Position numbers and translations under genes: made by a program
The notes under the pieces: generated by a model
The model's database searches: none
What the model saw: only the letters and a program-made list of their open reading frames with translations
Told to the model about the DNA's origin: nothing
Shown here: piece after piece, positions 101 to 9,822 of the stretch
Layout: the number at the start of each line of letters is the position of its first letter
How positions within the stretch are numbered: the first letter of the stretch is position 1
Source: a virus
Lineage: Duplodnaviria > Caudoviricetes
Length of the DNA stretch: 39,413 nt
Strand: one strand, 5' to 3'
Virus record (IMG/VR): IMGVR_UViG_3300035180_000319
Location: 1-39,413 of that record

Positions 101-144
101 GTATTTTTTTTTTTTTTTTTTTTTTTTGTTATCTTATGAAAAAC

Positions 145-173
145 ATTATATAGGATTTAATTCATTTTTGCAA
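145..173 (-). promoter_or_regulatory. sigma70 promoter (early, leftward), duplicate copy B
   Basis: Minus strand TTGCAA(173-168)-17 bp-TATAAT(150-145); overlaps the 3' end of ORF 157-366. Confidence 0.7.
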
Positions 174-366
174 GTTTTTCTTTGAAATATTTAGCTTTTT
201 TTCCACAACCAAAAAATAAAGCGTTTCTTTCAGCCATGCAGTATTCAGCATCCTGTTCAATCTTAATCTTTTCGCCAGAAACAGGGCTGATATAATAAGT
301 AGGTTCCTTTAGTTTTCTGGTGCAGTAACCAGCATTAAAAAACTGGCAATCTTTGCAAAGTTTCAT
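157..366 (-). CDS. Small Cys-rich hypothetical protein (possible Zn-binding)
   Basis: 69 aa, CxxC..C..C..C pattern; AAGGA RBS; ATGA overlap with the upstream ORF. Confidence 0.75.
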   Translation of the reverse strand: MKLCKDCQFFNAGYCTRKLKEPTYYISPVSGEKIKIEQDAEYCMAERNALFFGCGKKAKYFKEKLAKMN

Positions 367-530
367 TTTGTCAATTCCTTTTTAGTCTTAATCAACAAAT
401 TCATGGCTTCCTTTTCAGGCATATAAAGCGCCAGCATATTAAACGAAGCGGAAAAGCTAAACTCCATAGCCTTAAACATGGCAAGAATATATGAAACCTT
501 TGCATTGTTATTGCTATTTACTGTTTCCAT
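363..530 (-). CDS. Hypothetical protein, 55 aa (not in ORF track)
   Basis: Manual translation METVNSNNNAKVSYILAMFKAMEFSFSASFNMLALYMPEKEAMNLLIKTKKELTK; AAGGGG RBS; its TGA overlaps the next ATG; TATAAT on the minus strand at 569-564. Confidence 0.7.
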   Translation of the reverse strand: METVNSNNNAKVSYILAMFKAMEFSFSASFNMLALYMPEKEAMNLLIKTKKELTK

Positions 531-636
531 TTTTAACCCCTTATTTGTTTACCTGATAAGCTTATTATACATGAAATCACAAAAAAGTGTACGATTATTT
601 TTATGGCGTTATAAATAAAATTAGTGCAAAAAGCGC

Positions 637-672
637 TTGACAATTTTTTGACGGCATGGTAAAATTGGCGCG
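637..672 (+). promoter_or_regulatory. Repeated antisense sigma70 promoter, copy 1
   Basis: TTGACA(637-642)-17 bp-TAAAAT(660-665) with extended -10 TG and downstream TGGCGCG. Confidence 0.85.
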
Positions 673-674
673 GC

Positions 675-726
675 CAAGTCATTGATTTTAATAGCTTTTT
701 TATTTTCCTTTATAATCAATGGCTTG
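675..726. promoter_or_regulatory. Inverted pair of IHF consensus sites
   Basis: 675-687 on the minus strand reads AATCAA-TGAC-TTG; 714-726 on the plus strand reads AATCAA-TGGC-TTG; both fit WATCAA-N4-TTR exactly. Confidence 0.65.
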
Positions 727-744
727 CGAAAAATTAAGGGTAAA

Positions 745-771
745 ACAAAACCCGGATTTACCGGGTTTTGT
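745..771. terminator. Intrinsic terminator, probably bidirectional
   Basis: ACAAAACCCGG-ATTTA-CCGGGTTTTGT 11-bp stem just after the exonuclease stop. Confidence 0.8.
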
Positions 772-780
772 CAAGGGTTT

Positions 781-1467
781 TTATTTTGCAACGAATGCAT
801 CTTTTAGTTGACATTCTCGCCAATTATAAGGCCGCATTTTTTTACGCCAATTTTTACTTTTCAAAACATTAACCAAAATATGCCGCTCAAAATCTTTGCA
901 ATCTGCTAACGCTGTGTGCTGTTCTTCAGCCTTTATGCCAGTAACATAATGGCTCATTACTTCAGCATTGGTTTGATAAGTGGCATTCCCTAAATCAGTA
1001 ACATTATTAAAATAATGGTTATCAAGTACGAATTGGCGATATTTTTTAGTTTGACCATGCAGGCCGTATGCTATCTGCCACAAACAAAGATATTCATTAA
1101 ACCGGCTGAAATCAATCCCTGATTTCTGCAATTTATCTTTATCAAAAGCGGCATTATAGGATACGGCTATAACTTCGGGATATTTTGCTATAACGCGATC
1201 AAGCCAGCGATTAACGCCCTGAACCGATGATATCATAATCGAACCATTTTCCAGCATATTAGCATATTTTTGCTGGCGTAGTTTCAGATTCCAAAGCGTG
1301 CTTTGGTTATCATGAAATAATGGCTCATTAGCAAAATCCTTAAGAATAACTGAACATTCCGATTCGATAGTGCCATGCCGATCACACAAAACTGCACCAA
1401 AATCGTAAACGTGATCCTGCATTGTGGTTTCTGTGTCAATTATCAAAAACATCTGTTTTTTTGCCAT
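781..1467 (-). CDS. DEDDh-family 3'-5' exonuclease (DnaQ-like)
   Basis: ExoI IDTETT, ExoII YNAAFD, ExoIII HTALAD; start moved to MAKKQ at 1467, behind an AGGA RBS and a promoter. Confidence 0.85.
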   Translation of the reverse strand: MAKKQMFLIIDTETTMQDHVYDFGAVLCDRHGTIESECSVILKDFANEPLFHDNQSTLWNLKLRQQKYANMLENGSIMISSVQGVNRWLDRVIAKYPEVIAVSYNAAFDKDKLQKSGIDFSRFNEYLCLWQIAYGLHGQTKKYRQFVLDNHYFNNVTDLGNATYQTNAEVMSHYVTGIKAEEQHTALADCKDFERHILVNVLKSKNWRKKMRPYNWRECQLKDAFVAK

Positions 1468-1531
1468 TTTCTTTTTTCCTATTTTACCGTTTTGCAATAT
1501 GCTGGTACGGACAATCAACCATGAAGCGCTT

Positions 1532-1561
1532 ATTATACAGCATTTTTAATAAAAAATGCAA
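1532..1561 (-). promoter_or_regulatory. sigma70 promoter for the exonuclease
   Basis: Minus strand TTGCAT-18 bp-TATAAT. Confidence 0.55.
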
Positions 1562-1564
1562 ATT

Positions 1565-2047
1565 TTAATGGCCTTGTTTGGAAGGAATATAAACCCCTTT
1601 AATATTAAACTTATCGCAAACAGCCTTTAGGTAACTGGTATTATCCTCAAAAAATACGGCATTATTGCAGGCTGTTCTAAAATTTTTAAGATTAAAAAAT
1701 TTTTGCAGACCTTTAATTTTCAGAGTAGCACCAGATTGGCTATCGCCTTCCTTTCTGCTGATAAAGTAGTCTGGCTTACCTAGTTTTTCATTAACAAATT
1801 TCCAGTCCTGCTCGCCCATTACTCTAGCAGTCGCAATTATAACGTAAGTTTCGTTATCTGCCAAATCCGCTTTATATTGTTCTGCTAATGGCAGCAATGA
1901 ATCGTTAAAAGCTTTATGGCTGTTATTGCGCCAATAGTCTAAATCAATAACTTCCTTACCATTTTTTTCTATCGTCTTATAACGATGCAAGCTACAAACT
2001 ATCGTACCATCCATATCATATATTGCCAATTTTTTAATCATTTCCAT
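1565..2047 (-). CDS. HAD-superfamily phosphatase (possible nucleotidase, analogous in context to T5 dmp)
   Basis: Motif I YDMDGT, motif II ATAR, motif III K, motif IV FFEDN; early-region location. Confidence 0.8.
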   Translation of the reverse strand: MEMIKKLAIYDMDGTIVCSLHRYKTIEKNGKEVIDLDYWRNNSHKAFNDSLLPLAEQYKADLADNETYVIIATARVMGEQDWKFVNEKLGKPDYFISRKEGDSQSGATLKIKGLQKFFNLKNFRTACNNAVFFEDNTSYLKAVCDKFNIKGVYIPSKQGH

Positions 2048-2071
2048 TTCCTTGTTTACCTAGTGAAAATA

Positions 2072-2099
2072 ATTATATATGAACAAATAAAAAATGCAA
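2072..2099 (-). promoter_or_regulatory. sigma70 promoter for the HAD gene
   Basis: Minus strand TTGCAT-16 bp-TATAAT; AT-rich upstream tract shared with plus-strand copy 2. Confidence 0.55.
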
Positions 2100-2154
2100 G
2101 ATAATTTTTATATTTTCTAGGCTAAATATATTTTTATATTTTTACAGGAAACGC

Positions 2155-2190
2155 TTGACACGTACAATTTTACATGGTAAAATTGGCGCG
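2155..2190 (+). promoter_or_regulatory. Repeated antisense sigma70 promoter, copy 2
   Basis: TTGACA(2155-2160)-17 bp-TAAAAT(2178-2183), extended -10 TG, then TGGCGCG. Confidence 0.85.
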
Positions 2191-2221
2191 CCCAAATGAT
2201 AATCATTCTCATTTGGGTTTT
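2191..2221. promoter_or_regulatory. Fur box embedded in a terminator-like hairpin
   Basis: CCCAAATGA-TAATCATTC-TCATTTGGG then TTTT; 2197-2211 TGATAAT-C-ATTCTCA matches 13/14 of the 7-1-7 Fur consensus. Confidence 0.75.
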
Positions 2222-2230
2222 GTCAGTGTA

Positions 2231-2479
2231 TTATGCTGGATTTACAACAAAGACAATCTTGTCCGGAATCCGTGAAGGATATTCATTAGAAAAAGTTAAG
2301 TATTTAATTTTAGGATTAGATACAAGCAATTCTGGGCTGTAAGCAGGGAAATATTTATAATTCAAATATTCTAACGCTTTCCTAATAATTGCCTTTTCGT
2401 CAAAATATGCGCCAAATTCATTTTTTGGAATTTGGCTGATATCCTCATATAACTCCATGATATCTATAGTAAGTTTCAT
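2231..2479 (-). CDS. Hypothetical protein
   Basis: ORF from track; start moved to MKLTID at 2479, which forms an ATGA overlap with the upstream small ORF. Confidence 0.7.
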   Translation of the reverse strand: MKLTIDIMELYEDISQIPKNEFGAYFDEKAIIRKALEYLNYKYFPAYSPELLVSNPKIKYLTFSNEYPSRIPDKIVFVVNPA

Positions 2480-2610
2480 TTTCTCATTCTCCAATCATAA
2501 TATACTGAAATCAACAAGAGGATTAAAATACCCATTAAATCATATGCTTTTACTTCCATAAAAGCATAGAAAAGTAGGGAAAGAAGCATCGCAACAGCGT
2601 ATTTTAGCAT
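2476..2610 (-). CDS. Small membrane protein, 44 aa (not in ORF track)
   Basis: Manual translation MLKYAVAMLLSLLFYAFMEVKAYDLMGILILLLISVYYDWRMRK; fills the gap and overlaps both neighbours. Confidence 0.65.
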   Translation of the reverse strand: MLKYAVAMLLSLLFYAFMEVKAYDLMGILILLLISVYYDWRMRK

Positions 2611-2966
2611 AACCCGGCCTTTTTCCTTTGATTCAGCGTTATAAGTGGGTGGTATACATCAGGGGACAATCCCATTTTAACCATTGTTTCCTTCCAATGC
2701 TTCCCATGTTTAGCATCCCCCGTCAAACGATATGCAATATGGTGGCATAATTCATGCGGAATAATAACCTTGTAAAAATATTCCTCATTGTGTGCCATTA
2801 GATATACGCTTAAATCTATTTTATTAGAATCAAGCCATGCCCGGCCAGCAGTGGACGTTAGGCGGTTATTCATAACAATAATCGGCATTTTTCCTATTTT
2901 ATCCCCAAAAATGCAAATTGCATAATTCCACCATCCCGTGGCGTTCCTTTGTGCTTTAGCTAACAT
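2604..2966 (-). CDS. SprT-like zinc metalloprotease
   Basis: RLTSTAGRA, IPHELCHH, HGKHWK..M motifs typical of the SprT family. Confidence 0.8.
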   Translation of the reverse strand: MLAKAQRNATGWWNYAICIFGDKIGKMPIIVMNNRLTSTAGRAWLDSNKIDLSVYLMAHNEEYFYKVIIPHELCHHIAYRLTGDAKHGKHWKETMVKMGLSPDVYHPLITLNQRKKAGLC

Positions 2967-3168
2967 AATTTACAATCCCCCACAAATTAACGCAAGAAAA
3001 AAATCCCCATTGCACAATTCCGGCCTTATCTCGCACGTCAACAGAAGCATAAAGCCATGCAACAGAACCAGTTAAAAATGCAATATAGCCGTAAACTTGC
3101 AAGCCAGAATTGGCAGCAACCAGAACCGAGCCGACAATTCCTGCAATAGTACCAATCCATTTGAACAT
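2956..3168 (-). CDS. Small multi-pass membrane protein
   Basis: 70 aa with three hydrophobic segments; AAGGA RBS. Confidence 0.75.
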   Translation of the reverse strand: MFKWIGTIAGIVGSVLVAANSGLQVYGYIAFLTGSVAWLYASVDVRDKAGIVQWGFFSCVNLWGIVNYVS

Positions 3169-3240
3169 TTTAATTTATCCTTAGTTGATGGAATAATTAT
3201 CCTATATTAAAAATAGTTTGCATATAACCCTGATGGGGTA

Positions 3241-3276
3241 TTGACAAGTTACGGATTATGGAGTAAAATTGGCGCG
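3241..3276 (+). promoter_or_regulatory. Repeated antisense sigma70 promoter, copy 3
   Basis: TTGACA(3241-3246)-17 bp-TAAAAT(3264-3269), then TGGCGCG. Confidence 0.85.
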
Positions 3277-3278
3277 GC

Positions 3279-3304
3279 CAAGCCATTGAAAACAATGGCT
3301 TTTT
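3279..3304. terminator. Hairpin plus T tract containing an IHF-like site
   Basis: AAGCCATTG-AAAA-CAATGGCTT-TTT; minus strand 3291-3279 TTTCAA-TGGC-TTG has one mismatch to the IHF consensus. Confidence 0.6.
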
Positions 3305-3315
3305 ATTATCAAGGG

Positions 3316-3648
3316 TTAGTCTACATTATACCCGATGCTTTCAAAATACTTCACCCAGTTATGAAAACTTAAGCCATGACCTACTTCTTCCTTATTTTCT
3401 AGCTGCCAAGCGTGGATCAATTCATGCAAAATTGTTTCCTCAATTGCTTTAGCTGTCATATTAAGAACAGTGGAAATTTTAATATTATGATATTCCTTCA
3501 TATCCTTGCCTAGTTTGGATTCATAGTATCCAAAGGTCTTATTTGATGAGCTTGGCTTAACTTTAATCCTATATTGTAGATTGAAGCCATAATACGTATT
3601 AAATGCGTTAGCTTTTTCCTCAAGGTACGCTTTAATTAACTTTTTCAT
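3316..3648 (-). CDS. Second SprT-like zinc metalloprotease
   Basis: ETILHELIHAWQ...GHGLSF motif; start moved to MKKLIK behind an AAGGA RBS. Confidence 0.75.
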   Translation of the reverse strand: MKKLIKAYLEEKANAFNTYYGFNLQYRIKVKPSSSNKTFGYYESKLGKDMKEYHNIKISTVLNMTAKAIEETILHELIHAWQLENKEEVGHGLSFHNWVKYFESIGYNVD

Positions 3649-3650
3649 GA

Positions 3651-3782
3651 TTAAAATCCTTTCCATTGAACATAACGCAATGTTACCATAAGCAGTGTAA
3701 AAAGTACAGCAAGAGGCAAAGAAGCGGCAGAAATTAATGCCATAATCATGCCCAAGGTAATGCCTTTTAATAGTGCGCCCAT
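3651..3782 (-). CDS. Small membrane protein, 43 aa
   Basis: MGALLKGITLGMIMALISAASLPLAVLFTLLMVTLRYVQWKGF with GGAG RBS; the longer track ORF runs through promoter DNA. Confidence 0.65.
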   Translation of the reverse strand: MGALLKGITLGMIMALISAASLPLAVLFTLLMVTLRYVQWKGF

Positions 3783-3818
3783 TTTGTTAGCTCCATTCAT
3801 TGTGTTATTTGATGATTC

Positions 3819-3847
3819 ATTATTGCATAGTGAGCACAATTTTGCAA
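3819..3847 (-). promoter_or_regulatory. sigma70-like promoter (leftward)
   Basis: Minus strand TTGCAA-17 bp-AATAAT. Confidence 0.5.
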
Positions 3848-3880
3848 CATATTTATTTATATTTATTTTTGATTTACCTA

Positions 3881-3916
3881 TTGACACCGACAGTTTTACA
3901 TGGTAAAATTGGCGCC
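3881..3916 (+). promoter_or_regulatory. Repeated antisense sigma70 promoter, copy 4
   Basis: TTGACA(3881-3886)-17 bp-TAAAAT(3904-3909), extended -10 TG, then TGGCGCC. Confidence 0.85.
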
Positions 3917-3922
3917 GCCAGA

Positions 3923-3937
3923 TGCTAATGATTCTCA
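3923..3937. promoter_or_regulatory. Fur-box-like site
   Basis: TGCTAAT-G-ATTCTCA matches 12/14 of the 7-1-7 Fur consensus; similar position relative to the promoter as in copy 2. Confidence 0.55.
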
Positions 3938-3951
3938 TTCGCTATACAGTA

Positions 3952-3999
3952 GAACATCAAGCTGGCATGATCTTTGCTTATCATGCCAGCTTGATGTTC
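3952..3999. repeat. Perfect 20-bp inverted repeat containing a sigma54 -24/-12 motif
   Basis: GAACATCAAGCTGGCATGAT-CTTTGCTT-ATCATGCCAGCTTGATGTTC; TGGCAT-N5-TTGCT at 3963-3978. Confidence 0.85.
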
Positions 4000-4321
4000 A
4001 TTCAGCTTTAATGGCTTTCAGAAGTTTAGCAAGTACAGTCCTATTTGCTTTAGACAAGGAAGCGCATTCTGCTTCAGTAGCGCAGACCAGAAACCCGACC
4101 TGATAAGCCAGATCATCCTTTTTAACAGTAGCCTTATCAGACTGTGCATTTTTGACCTTGGCTTTGTAACAGCCTTCCCTGCTAAGTTTAGCAACAACAG
4201 ACCTAACGCTCTTACCCATGCGCTTCGCCAGTACCTCCACAGTGACGCCCTCGTTAGTATATGCCTCAATCATTGCGGCAGTTTGTTCAGCAGTATAGTT
4301 TACTTGTTTAGTGGTTGCCAT
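3998..4321 (-). CDS. A2: T5 A2-like DNA-binding protein
   Basis: NYT..., LAKRMGKSVRSVVAKLSREGCYK, KDDL, SLSKAN..L pattern recalls T5 A2; consensus promoter and AAGGAG RBS. Confidence 0.65.
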   Translation of the reverse strand: MATTKQVNYTAEQTAAMIEAYTNEGVTVEVLAKRMGKSVRSVVAKLSREGCYKAKVKNAQSDKATVKKDDLAYQVGFLVCATEAECASLSKANRTVLAKLLKAIKAE

Positions 4322-4361
4322 TTTTTGATTCTCCTTAGTTTTTACTGCATTGAAAGATTAT

Positions 4362-4390
4362 ATTATATTAGAGTTAAGCATAGCTGTCAA
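4362..4390 (-). promoter_or_regulatory. Consensus sigma70 promoter for the A2-like gene
   Basis: Minus strand TTGACA(4390-4385)-17 bp-TATAAT(4367-4362). Confidence 0.85.
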
Positions 4391-4434
4391 GGATTATTTT
4401 ACTAATATTATATTTATTTTTTATTTGTTATCTA

Positions 4435-4463
4435 TTGCATTCTACTGTATAGTATGATATACT
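4435..4463 (+). promoter_or_regulatory. Rightward sigma70 promoter reading into the GC-rich junction element
   Basis: TTGCAT-17 bp-TATACT with extended -10 TG. Confidence 0.6.
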
Positions 4464-4556
4464 AGGGCAGGGCGGTTATTAGACTCGCTATTTTTCAACC
4501 GCTCGCCGACCCACCCACACGTAAAACTTTATAAGGCCCCATCAAAAGTCAATTAG

Positions 4557-4617
4557 GCGATAATTGCGATAATTGCGATAATTGCGATAATTGCGATAAT
4601 TGCGATAATTGCGATAA
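4557..4617. repeat. Tandem 9-bp repeat (GCGATAATT) x6 plus a 7-bp partial unit
   Basis: Directly visible perfect units, no spacers. Confidence 0.95.
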
Positions 4618-4635
4618 GCATAAAAAATTTTTAAC

Positions 4636-4664
4636 TTGACATAACTTCCTTAAGCTGTTATAAT
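4636..4664 (+). promoter_or_regulatory. Late-operon sigma70 promoter
   Basis: AAAAAATTTTT-AAC-TTGACA-17 bp-TATAAT with extended -10 TG. Confidence 0.85.
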
Positions 4665-4692
4665 ATCTATATTATCATAATTATAATATAAC

Positions 4693-5172
4693 ATGAGCCT
4701 ACCTATTACTCCACCTGCACAAGCAGTACAAATCTCTCCAGAAGCATTGGAAGTAGCTAATCTCTATTTACAATGCCAAAATATGCAAACTGTATCGCTA
4801 GAATTAGATATACCAATAGAGGAAGTATCTGCAATACTATCGCGCCGAGAGGTAAGAGCCTATATTGACCAAGTATTCCAAGATGTTGGGTTTAATAATA
4901 GATTTAGGATGAGAGGTGTAATGGATACTCTAATCCAAAAGAAACTTAAAGAGTTAGACGAAGCCGATATAGGATCATCAAAAGATATTGCAGATCTATT
5001 AGCCCTTAGTCATAAAATGACTATGGAAGTCTTAGATAGAGAGATTAAATTAGAGACAGCAAGGGCTAATAATACAAAAGTCCAAACTCAAGTTAATATG
5101 CAAGTTAATGATTTTGGGGATGGCAGTAAGTACGGAGACCTTATTAATAAATTGTTATCAGAAGGTAAATGA
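4693..5172 (+). CDS. terS: Terminase small subunit (T5-like)
   Basis: ISPE.LEV...YLQ, EV.AYID.VF.D.GF.NR, KKL.ELDE..IGSSKDI, HKM.ME motifs resemble T5 TerS; position upstream of TerL. Confidence 0.85.
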   Translation: MSLPITPPAQAVQISPEALEVANLYLQCQNMQTVSLELDIPIEEVSAILSRREVRAYIDQVFQDVGFNNRFRMRGVMDTLIQKKLKELDEADIGSSKDIADLLALSHKMTMEVLDREIKLETARANNTKVQTQVNMQVNDFGDGSKYGDLINKLLSEGK

Positions 5173-6387
5173 ATGTTAGACGTTATTACGCACGAATATA
5201 ATAAATCTGTAGCGTATCTTAACAAGGGTAACTATAAGAAAGCTCTTGCAATACTTAAAAAGTGTCTTAGCCAGGTAGAATTTAAGGAAGCGTATCTAAA
5301 TATTGGAAACTGTTATAGGATGCTAGGTCAGGATACTAAAATGATCGAATCCTATAAAAAAGCCTGCTCACCTAAAATAACTTTTCTTGATGGTCATACT
5401 GTAGAGGAGTACCCAGCTGGTCTAAATAATCTAGGTCTTGCCTACTATATGTGTGGATATGATGATCTAGCTATTGAGTGCTACGAGAGAGCAATGGCTG
5501 TGGAGCCTAAATTCTGGGACGCTTGGTGGAATTGCAGTACAGCAGTATTACGTAAAGCCTCTTCGGGACAACTTGAGTTATTCCCGAGAGGATGGATGAT
5601 GTATGATGCTAGGTTCCTAAAAACACCACCCATTAAAATGAAGAATACTAAAGCTTCTCTAGTTTATTGGGATAGAGTATCTTCAGGTACAGCAATAATT
5701 GTCTTAGCAGAACAAGGTATTGGTGATGCTATTATGTGGGGCCGCTACTTACCCCTATTGGCGGAAAAGTTCTCCGAAGTATATGTACAGTGTGATGCAG
5801 AGTTAGAACCCGTATTTTCCGACTATAAATGTGTTAGAGATGCATCTGAGTGCCCAGCTGAATTAGCTATTCCAATGTGCACGCTTTCTAGGTGTTTTGA
5901 TACTATTCCTTCTGGAGATTGGTTACGTGATAAATTTTCTGCATTTGATTTTGGCACCTCTGAGAGGCTTAATGTGGGTATTGTACATCGTGGTTCAGCT
6001 ACTCATGCTAATGATCGTAATAGGAGTGTTCCTATACACCGTTTTCATTTCCTTAGTAAGTATGTTAATCTTTACAGTCTTGTACCGGGGTTTAATACTA
6101 CTAAACATGTTACTGGGTTGGATATCCACTCATGGGAAGATACGGCAAAATACATTAATGGACTCGATCTTGTCATCTCTGTCGATACGTCGGTAGCTCA
6201 TATGGCGGGATCTCTTGGAGCCAAAACATGGCTCCTACAACCATTAAAAGAAACAGATTTTAGATGGGGTAATAACGTTTCTTCTAGCGTATGGTATGAC
6301 TCTATACAAATTTTTAATAATCCCAACTCTTGGGAGCATGTATTCTCCCAAGTAGAGGATGCAATAAAGTCGGAGTTATATTTATAG
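5173..6387 (+). CDS. TPR-repeat protein with GT-B (GT9-like) glycosyltransferase domain
   Basis: N-terminal TPRs (AYLNIGNCY, NNLGLAYY..A...YERA); EQGIGD, H.NDRNRS, DLVISVDTSVAHMAGSLG, DFRWG..WYDS motifs. Confidence 0.8.
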   Translation: MLDVITHEYNKSVAYLNKGNYKKALAILKKCLSQVEFKEAYLNIGNCYRMLGQDTKMIESYKKACSPKITFLDGHTVEEYPAGLNNLGLAYYMCGYDDLAIECYERAMAVEPKFWDAWWNCSTAVLRKASSGQLELFPRGWMMYDARFLKTPPIKMKNTKASLVYWDRVSSGTAIIVLAEQGIGDAIMWGRYLPLLAEKFSEVYVQCDAELEPVFSDYKCVRDASECPAELAIPMCTLSRCFDTIPSGDWLRDKFSAFDFGTSERLNVGIVHRGSATHANDRNRSVPIHRFHFLSKYVNLYSLVPGFNTTKHVTGLDIHSWEDTAKYINGLDLVISVDTSVAHMAGSLGAKTWLLQPLKETDFRWGNNVSSSVWYDSIQIFNNPNSWEHVFSQVEDAIKSELYL

Positions 6388-8376: not shown

Positions 8377-9822
8377 TTATTTTAATACCCAAACATCATT
8401 ACCACAGTCAAATACTCTATAGTATCCAGCCTCTTTCATTATCTCTACTTCAGTCATCTCCTCCTTATATACCTCAGGAAATAGTTCCTTTAATTTATGT
8501 TTTTGACACTGATACCTAGACAAGGATTTAAGTCCTCTATAGTACCTATAGTTAGGAGCAGAAGTGTGTAGGTACTCAAATCCTAGTTTTTTATATAGGG
8601 CCCCAGTACTCCAGCGCCTATCACTATAGCTAATAATAGATCCTTTATGCCCCTTAATAAAGTACTTTAGTAGCTTAGAAGCCCCACCTACTACAGTTAT
8701 ATCTAGTAAAGAACAATAACGAACTAATTCATAGTCGTACCCTTTAGTAAACTTGGGAGTACTAAAGGTCATGACTGCAACTAATTCATCATAGTAAAAT
8801 AGTCCCAAATTTATAGAAGAGGGAGAGCCAGCACCCTGTATATGGTTAGCCTCTAAAAACTCTCGGGGAAATCCAATTTCTTTTACTATGCATTTACGTG
8901 CACCTATCTGATCTGTACTACCTAGTATAGATTTAATTCGGGACTTTACTATATCTTGTTTATTAATCCATTCATCTTCATTAATATGAATTAATTGGTA
9001 TCCAAAATTCTCTACACCTATAGTCTTATCAAGATGATACCTACTGCCTTTAATTTCCTCTCTATGATGGTATACCCCATTAAACTCAAAAGCCAACCCA
9101 AGATCTGGCAGAACAATATCTATCTCTTTACCTTCTAAGATATCTCTATCCCCCGAAATCACCCATCCAGAGTATATTGACTTTATATAGGTAAGTAACT
9201 CAAGTTCCTTATTAGAAGTATTAGGATTACACTGAGGGCATATACTAGAGTCACCCCGTTCTAGTATATTATTAGGGCGTACCTGTGTAGTATGATCACA
9301 GGTAGTATACCCTATCTGAATAAGCTCCCTACTATGGGTATACTCAGATAGCACTTTAACAGTGGGGTATAGTAAAGATAAATCTGCTATAAATTGTTCA
9401 GTACTCTTCTTTCTAGTTATAGCTGGTGTACATTTTCTACAAATACTGCCTATTTTCTGAGTAAGAAAATTATCAGGGATTATACTCCAAGTATTATGAC
9501 AGTCATTACATTCAACAAGTATTGAAGTTTTAGCATTTATATACTTACCTACCACTTTAATATTGGGGGTAATAGTAGCTACTTCTTGCTCAAATTGTTC
9601 CTGCGTTTTCTTATTATAAACCTGAACTGGATTACATATCCTACATGTACTTCCAGTACCCTTACTTTTTAATCTATCTGGCACTATCTCCCACTCATGA
9701 CCACAAGCCCCTTTAACTAACACTTTACTTTTAGCATTAATATATTCCCCTACTACTAATAAGGTAGGATGAGTTATACGCATATACTCCTTAAATTTAT
9801 TGCTATTTATACTTGTAATCAT
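8377..9822 (-). CDS. Hef-like homing endonuclease: Zn-ribbon repeats, Vsr-like/PD-(D/E)XK nuclease and Mom-like GNAT-type C-terminal domain
   Basis: Three C/H..CxxC repeats; EIDIVLPDLGLAFEFNGVYHH; ARKC..NHIQG..YELVRYC..GGASKL..SYSDRRW..DCGN; own promoter and AGGAG RBS at 9822. Confidence 0.75.
   Translation of the reverse strand: MITSINSNKFKEYMRITHPTLLVVGEYINAKSKVLVKGACGHEWEIVPDRLKSKGTGSTCRICNPVQVYNKKTQEQFEQEVATITPNIKVVGKYINAKTSILVECNDCHNTWSIIPDNFLTQKIGSICRKCTPAITRKKSTEQFIADLSLLYPTVKVLSEYTHSRELIQIGYTTCDHTTQVRPNNILERGDSSICPQCNPNTSNKELELLTYIKSIYSGWVISGDRDILEGKEIDIVLPDLGLAFEFNGVYHHREEIKGSRYHLDKTIGVENFGYQLIHINEDEWINKQDIVKSRIKSILGSTDQIGARKCIVKEIGFPREFLEANHIQGAGSPSSINLGLFYYDELVAVMTFSTPKFTKGYDYELVRYCSLLDITVVGGASKLLKYFIKGHKGSIISYSDRRWSTGALYKKLGFEYLHTSAPNYRYYRGLKSLSRYQCQKHKLKELFPEVYKEEMTEVEIMKEAGYYRVFDCGNDVWVLK

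Follow-up and report, generated by a model that had tools for sequence, protein, structure and literature searches.

Repeated outward promoters with palindromic cassettes in the likely terminal repeat of a T5-like phage family

Promoter copies in the window

The 39,413-nt IMG/VR virus record IMGVR_UViG_3300035180_000319 (Duplodnaviria; Caudoviricetes), hereafter the window, is a partial T5-like genome in which the terminase genes terS and terL and the portal and capsid genes are located from position 4693 on. Ahead of them lies a module of minus-strand genes with a repeated promoter unit, TTGACA-N17-TAAAAT-TGGCGC, which runs against these genes and reads into a palindromic cassette (Table 1). 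A scan with this pattern gave four exact copies, starting at positions 637, 2155, 3241, and 3881 and all on the plus strand, as an earlier note on this DNA had reported. When only the two hexamers were required and up to one mismatch was allowed, 8 matches were found in the window, against a mean of 0.72 in shuffled sequences, and 0 of 100 shuffles reached 8. A chance origin of the copies was rejected by these counts together with the recurrence of the unit in relatives.

All four copies are intergenic between minus-strand open reading frames (ORFs); each faces the 3' end and stop codon of one ORF, with the promoter region of the following minus-strand gene at its back. Inspection of the ORFs revealed no same-strand ORF with a ribosome-binding site after any of the four copies, confirming the claim that they are antisense to the early genes and gene-less. 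The weaker fifth unit (850-823, minus strand) is located inside the 3' end of the 781-1464 gene and converges on copy 1. In a relative with 97% identity, the spacer is 18 bp long in three of the four orthologous copies; the length is therefore 17 or 18 bp, and the earlier view of an invariant 17-bp spacer was abandoned. Spacer identity between the window and this relative was 35/68, while the boxes and the discriminator were kept, apart from one -35 base of copy 2. Such kept boxes with drifting spacers are as expected for selection on polymerase recognition.

A role of the copies as late promoters for terS is unlikely because terS has its own consensus promoter at 4636. No tRNA genes were found behind the promoters in the window, and Rfam 15 gave no match in it at the gathering score. 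A look for transcripts over positions 130-6000 listed no RNA sample holding this part of the window, which speaks neither for nor against expression. Between positions 63 and 200, a 73-bp duplication results in two tandem inward promoters, and a run of 24 T residues there may be an assembly artefact.

Table 1. Features of the promoter-bearing module and its surroundings (positions in the window)
Feature	Position	Strand	Remarks
Outward sigma70-type promoter, copy 1	637..671	+	-35, 17 bp, -10, GC-rich discriminator; AT-rich upstream
Copy 1 cassette	673..727		Two inverted IHF-like cores; motif scan and folding
GC-rich hairpin, terminator-like	745..771		11 bp; common to outward unit and incoming exonuclease-like gene
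Exonuclease-like gene	781..1464	-	Faces copy 1; PHROG 192 (weak), PHROG 20187
Fifth related unit, weaker	823..850	-	Poor -35, similar discriminator
Polynucleotide kinase/phosphatase-like gene	1565..2047	-	Back-to-back with copy 2; PHROG 415
Outward promoter, copy 2	2155..2189	+	
Copy 2 cassette	2190..2222		Fur-like box (2194-2212) in GC-clamped inverted repeat, then T-run on plus strand
Gene facing copy 2	2231..2494	-	No family match
Outward promoter, copy 3	3241..3275	+	
Copy 3 cassette	3280..3308	+	Degenerate IHF-like site, also 9-bp hairpin and T-run
SprT-like gene	3316..3648	-	Faces copy 3
Outward promoter, copy 4	3881..3915	+	
Copy 4 Fur-like box	3921..3939		15-mer core 3923-3937, 2 mismatches to consensus
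Copy 4 perfect inverted repeat	3952..3999		20-bp arms; touches stop codon of D5/A2-like gene
Small D5/A2-family DNA-binding protein (predicted)	3998..4321	-	Two predicted three-helix domains
Consensus inward (sense) promoter of D5/A2-like gene	4362..4390	-	Plain discriminator, not GC-rich
T5-family left-end element	4463..4484	-	15/22 identical to T5 positions 29-50
9-bp tandem repeat	4557..4617		6.8 copies; at contig-depth step, just outside inferred end
Terminase small subunit (terS)	4693..5172	+	First gene outside module

Cassettes downstream of the window promoters

Each promoter reads into a palindromic cassette, in agreement with the first description, and all four cassettes fold better than shuffled sequences on both strands (z from -2.7 to -7.3). 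The sites within them were scored against consensus motifs for Fur, IHF, and sigma54, and the Fur and sigma54 sites are named putatively. The Fur 15-mer was matched with one mismatch at 2197 (copy 2) and with two at 3923 (copy 4); with two mismatches, it has two more matches elsewhere in the window. A sigma54-like site with one mismatch (3963-3978) is located inside the inverted repeat of copy 4, and it is not individually significant, the motif having three other matches in the window, one of them exact. The IHF core was found exactly at 675 on the minus strand and at 714 on the plus strand of copy 1 (spans 675-687 and 714-726), with two further matches elsewhere in the window. The T-run at 696-701 constitutes the upstream A-tract of the minus-strand core, on the side described together with the consensus in bioRxiv 10.1101/382655. 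The copy 3 hairpin carries one compensatory pair change in the 97% relative. Single motif matches prove little in 39 kb, since each motif also matches two or three other places.

Conservation and polarity of the unit among relatives

The exact pattern was found in 19 loci and a relaxed pattern in 169 loci, and the unit is estimated to occur in about 560 IMG/VR stretches. To avoid choosing loci by the motif, a second set was selected by the D5-like protein encoded at 3998-4321; the best 80 of 535 stretches encoding it gave 78 loci, which were grouped into 42 clusters. The promoter was present in 33 of the 42 clusters, and all 82 promoter matches in them (82/82) were antisense to the D5-like gene. 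The search of related genomes proposed in the earlier note thus identified the unit as a family trait. In three near-complete genomes, all matches fell within a span of at most 9.2 kb, which was mapped to the terS-side module in two of them. The module beside terS to which the unit is limited measures 7-12 kb.

Among 251 unique units, a same-strand ORF preceded by a purine-rich leader came after only 4, and the explanation as ordinary gene promoters was rejected on this count. Eighty-two of the 183 promoter-bearing loci were tied to the family via a nearby gene, and most of the others are short. Two loci (L015 and L019) seem to have been picked up through ordinary promoters that have nothing to do with the unit. 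The same promoter also occurs in face-to-face or tandem pairs 50-90 bp apart with no gene between them (L002 3001-3085, L116, L135, L010, and L017).

Outward and sense promoters co-occurred at 33 of 42 junctions, compared with a sense promoter at 62 of 121 junctions without an outward promoter (p 0.002). The -10 boxes of back-to-back promoters were often 62-123 bp apart; in 37 clusters, the distances gathered at 62-63, 79-82, 89-95, 103-106, 114, and 123 bp, possibly through helical phasing or shared descent.

Cassette sequences among relatives

A perfect arm of at least 7 bases was present in the first 45 nt of 52 of 77 unique cassettes, compared with 28 of 385 shuffled sequences, and 26 of those 52 repeats start at most 2 bases from the discriminator core. 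De novo word counts brought out several unnamed families and a Fur-like one, the latter in 32 of 251 cassettes. For enrichment, which was calculated for the three site types of the window only, the Fur-like site of copy 2 served as the query, and the window and its 97% relative were left out. Fur-like sites were found in 24 of 243 cassettes, against 6/1004 other intergenic, 0/800 coding, and 1/1215 shuffled tiles, and in 19 of these 24 the site starts 3-7 bases past the discriminator core. The controls in this comparison came from the protein-selected loci only, and the test was repeated within the same loci: 24/242 just downstream of the promoter versus 5/631 in three upstream bins, with 11/237 and 7/234 in the bins further downstream. 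The enrichment of the predicted Fur-like site at about +1 is thus robust. The IHF-like core was not enriched behind the promoter (13/243 cassettes vs 47/1004 intergenic tiles), and about half of its matches carry an A-tract that was absent from the query. Of the host sites named in the earlier note, Fur is consequently well supported by the scoring against controls, whereas IHF-like and sigma54-like sites, though present again in relatives, show no enrichment behind the promoter.

Well-formed sigma54-like sites were also observed in module gaps away from outward promoters, up to four per locus (L037 9580-13420, L071, L084, and L109). Other cassettes contained, by eye, what we take to be NtrC-like (L008 and L037) and Pho-like (L074) sites, as well as putative HexR- and LexA-like sites. 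A 16-bp palindrome that we take to be parS-like was seen by eye in cassettes of L045, L074, and L103. Its arm is among the ParB-bound variants in PMC5961200. A very common unnamed 18-bp quasi-palindrome, often in two or three copies per cassette, was present in L071, L072, L088, L100, L102, L106, L110, and others, and the cassettes hold several further unnamed palindrome families.

Fur-like cassettes faced 17 gene clusters in 25 cases and backed onto 17 gene clusters in 22 cases, and single gene families, such as the SprT-like family, were faced by many cassette types. There is no tie between the type of cassette and the gene that it faces or backs onto. This result weakens the idea, raised in the earlier note, that each site senses host state for one neighboring gene, because gene-specific sensing predicts fixed regulator-gene pairs, which were not seen.

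Genome end and terminal repeat

In four of four runs, long contigs to the left of position 4587 were about 1.3-3x deeper than those to the right: 580-764 vs 371-399 in X1, 387-529 vs 232-251 in X2, 392-702 vs 222-307 in X3, and 136-228 vs 79-112 in X4, these values being contig depth and not copy number. The module also contains a T5-family left-end element (Table 1), the score of which was reached by 2 of 92 T5 tiles. Among uncultured loci, 42 of 45 (judged by eye) carry the element upstream of terS with its orientation kept, as do 4 of 4 cultured ones, terS having been located in 49 of 52 loci for this count. The element could be the site recognized by the terminase and may serve to mark genome ends. 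At the place of the 9-bp tandem repeat of the window, some relatives carry 9-10 bp tandem repeats of different sequence.

From the depth step and the left-end element, the promoter region is likely a direct terminal repeat with a physical end near 4510; with the end at this place, the promoters would point outward. In T5, the left end enters the cell first (Davison, bioRxiv 10.1101/866236), and by analogy the terS-side end of this phage would enter first as well.

Neighboring genes

No cultured close relative was found, terL being less than 60% identical in all 908 records. Compared with cultured phages, the D5-like gene gave only weak Vibrio D5 matches and the exonuclease-like gene only distant matches. 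The protein family of the 3998-4321 gene has at least 809 members; among those aligned, 33 of 33 matched the D5-like PHROG 323 and 27 of 33 matched PHROG 1725, the family of T5 A2. The protein of the window showed no pairwise match to T5 A2, and profile comparison gave a probability of 1.2%. The gene thus appears only remotely A2/D5-like, and the DNA-transfer role given to it in the earlier note would be a candidate role. Its predicted fold (pLDDT 82) had weak helix-turn-helix neighbors only and no PDB match at E<=0.001. D5/A2-like paralogues number at least 3-4 per terminal module in L021, L028, and L030, where a convergent pair closes the inner side.

A second SprT-like metalloprotease gene is located at 2604-2966 on the minus strand, and both SprT-like genes recur in relatives. 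Between terS and terL, a TPR-repeat protein with a weak glycosyltransferase-9 match is encoded (5173-6387, plus strand); the gene is present in some relatives and absent from L026 and L027.

Comparison with known systems

The nearest counterpart is Repeat Regions 2 and 3 of the T5 terminal repeat, with the injection stop signal. These lie in a terminal repeat beside terS in a T5-like phage, as the window units probably do; T5 and the window share the left-end element and non-coding palindromes matching host-protein sites, the function of which is a proposal in both. In T5 (L020, NC_005859), tandem Fur-like boxes at 9551-9715 span the calculated first-step shear point at 9618, and two identical LexA-like palindromes are located at 6213 and 9411 in Repeat Regions 2 and 3. 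Clusters of Fur-like sites were found in the repeat regions of T5, Klebsiella phi1_146058, and Vibrio vspsw1, and single sites in those of Vibrio D252 and Ceto; the LexA-like palindrome also occurs in phi1_146058 and Ceto. The sites of T5 are clustered in long non-coding blocks, whereas those of the window are dispersed, one cassette per gap, and each stands behind an outward promoter. An antisense promoter with a GC-rich discriminator was found in none of the five repeat-containing cultured stretches (T5, phi1_146058, vspsw1, D252, and Ceto); the AhSzq-1 stretch consists of early genes, not repeat, and was excluded from this count. T5 also carries A1 in its repeat, whereas no T5 A1 homologue was found in three of three near-complete relatives, in a search run without a positive control. 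The window, which stops short of the inner end of the repeat, contains no perfect match to the DnaA-box motif. DnaA boxes have been named in the T5 repeats, with IHF and FIS as possibilities only (Davison, bioRxiv 10.1101/866236), and a BF23 counterpart has been described (PMC10644984). The terms "Fur box", "SOS box", "promoter", and "sigma" are absent from the main text of Davison, the supplements of which may say more.

Among other systems, the PeSL cassettes of T4-like phages (PMC2839356 and PMC4122927) resemble the units in combining a repeated intergenic sigma70 promoter with a stem-loop, an AT-rich upstream region, and a hypervariable early region. However, PeSLs point into and drive the next gene, whereas the window units are antisense, lack an ORF, and have operator-like cores. 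The CtrA-site arrays of alphaproteobacterial phages, associated with "lytic deferment" (PMC9437464), likewise bring host-regulator sites together in the promoter regions of a single part of the genome of a lytic phage. They involve one regulator with binding shown, whereas many predicted site types stand here behind gene-less antisense promoters; with several unrelated motif families and Fur-like sites in about one-tenth of the cassettes, a single-regulator array was not what was found. In the literature covered, which was mostly open-access and did not include the older T5 sequence papers, phage terminal repeats were not found to be described with gene-less outward promoter-operator units.

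Interpretation of the units and alternative explanations

The four elements appear to be copies of a family-wide unit of promoter and palindrome within the likely terminal repeat of a T5-like phage. Judging from the sequence, the units may serve to dock RNA polymerase and DNA-binding proteins of the host onto the DNA end that would enter first, a reading to which we assign a probability of roughly 0.4. Since the predicted operator overlaps the start site, either polymerase or a host regulator would occupy the unit in most host states, and the DNA that likely enters first would be coated with protein in most of them. The purpose would be bulk occupancy rather than control of one neighboring gene. 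Such a coating could grip or ratchet the entering DNA, or block nucleases working inward from the free end, and any transcripts would be short by-products. The earlier note had listed such a loading or anchor array next to a DNA end as one of three models, and it has gained support from the likely terminal repeat ending near 4510, from the non-sensor (parS-like) sites, and from the Fur-like clusters in the repeats of cultured T5 relatives. The parS-like palindrome would be a loading site and not a sensor. T7-like pulling of DNA by polymerase was rejected, as the orientation would be wrong if a T5-type end enters first.

Several points weigh against docking. Repressed promoters have, in their textbook form, an operator at +1, and this layout fits sensing at least as well; an outward-moving polymerase would not pull DNA in, and a handful of sites would make a sparse ratchet. 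Neither the IHF-like core with its tract (5/243 cassettes vs 8/1004 intergenic) nor the sigma54-like site (5/243 vs 8/1004, and 3/1000 coding) was enriched behind the promoter; as cassettes and other intergenic tiles are alike in this respect, sigma54-like sites seem to mark the region and not the unit. Most cassettes hold unnamed palindromes, which could be sites of the phage's own D5/A2 paralogues. The depth step is one of contigs, not of copy number, and one of the runs, X1, may be the sample from which the window came. A host search in genome contigs gave 14 loci, mostly on short contigs mis-binned into unrelated metagenome-assembled genome (MAG) bins. The T5-style two-step entry may not apply either, because the A1 homologue was not found.

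The main rival reading, which we hold less probable than docking, is that the units form a collective sensor of host state, each of the outward promoters being repressed by a host regulator of its own. A freed promoter would dampen the facing early gene by convergent transcription or compete with the back-to-back promoter for polymerase, and the sum would tune or defer early infection. The position of the Fur-like sites just after the discriminator core and the co-occurrence of outward and sense promoters fit this explanation, as do the iron, nitrogen, phosphate, and growth signals that the named sites would report. A strict terminator on the promoter strand was found in only 10 of 77 cassettes, leaving read-through into the facing gene possible. 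On the other hand, no regulator was paired with a gene, parS-like and IHF-like sites would be poor sensors, and a hairpin and T-run close copies 2 and 3 of the window within about 35 nt. Promoters with a GC-rich discriminator would switch off in starvation and Fur repression lifts in iron starvation, so the logic of the unit would be mixed. The CtrA sites of alphaproteobacterial phages (PMC9437464) provide a precedent. That this lytic phage family has equipped its first-entering DNA with a modular set of gene-less promoters under host repression is unlikely in our estimate. If it were true, several regulators would be read at once (iron, nitrogen, phosphate, chromosome proteins, and ppGpp), genome entry or the pace of early genes would be set by the number of polymerases running against them, and the T5 injection-stop region would be a clustered, promoter-less form of the same device.

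Termination by collision is an improbable explanation, according to which a polymerase from the outward promoter meets the incoming early transcription head-on and ends it at the palindrome, insulating strong single-gene units. The geometry is indeed convergent, with a stem-loop between promoter and stop codon at a median gap of 82 nt, and in copy 4 the 20-bp repeat reaches the stop codon of the facing gene without a U-run. Head-on collisions with a stem-loop terminate convergent genes in E. coli (bioRxiv 10.1101/2022.10.23.513370); both partners are genes there, whereas one is an empty promoter here and only the geometry is shared. Ordinary terminators were not lacking more often where the promoter was present (9/33 vs 20/62, p 0.65), and the Fur-box nature of the palindromes would be left unexplained. 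Similarly improbable are functional hairpin RNAs of 30-110 nt, acting as decoys or antisense regulators. The folding z was below -2 in the first 45 nt of 45 of 77 cassettes, half of the strong repeats start within 2 bases of the discriminator core, the GC clamps reach beyond the protein sites, and copy 3 has its compensatory change. In contrast, the promoter strand was the more stable one in only 28 of 77, internal mismatches (G/T 4, A/C 9, other 12) and terminator-like ends (10 vs 10 by strand) did not point to RNA, no Rfam match was obtained, and the cores are double-stranded DNA operator sequences with no RNA fold common to the cassettes. The tiny hairpin RNAs proposed in the earlier note are therefore not favored for lack of promoter-strand bias in folding or G-U pairs and of an Rfam match, although the strand-bias test has low power on perfect palindromes, and window copies 2 and 3 do read into a hairpin and T-run. 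Least probable is that the units are PeSL-like recombination cassettes, the repeat being retained because crossovers at it shuffle the early genes, with the operators as passengers. Gene order and cassette content differ among relatives, and the spacers of copies 3 and 4 are alike in the 97% relative, suggesting gene conversion. However, only about 18 bases, on either side of a freely varying spacer, are fixed among the copies, and strict polarity and Fur enrichment would go unexplained; PeSLs, moreover, end in a ribosome-binding site and start codon (PMC2839356), which these units do not.

Significance

In summary, the family-wide unit is real, and it adds to the host-site arrays of T5-like terminal repeats. 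Why these repeats keep elaborate non-coding palindromes, and how DNA entry is halted and resumed, are questions that have stood for decades, and functional studies are lacking according to the BF23 paper (PMC10644984). The family described here presents the palindromes as interchangeable predicted host-protein sites, coupled to an apparently selected polymerase site in an estimated 560 or so IMG/VR stretches. The repeats of T5 itself look like Fur boxes around 9618, with LexA-like spacers, which would make the idea testable in a laboratory phage.

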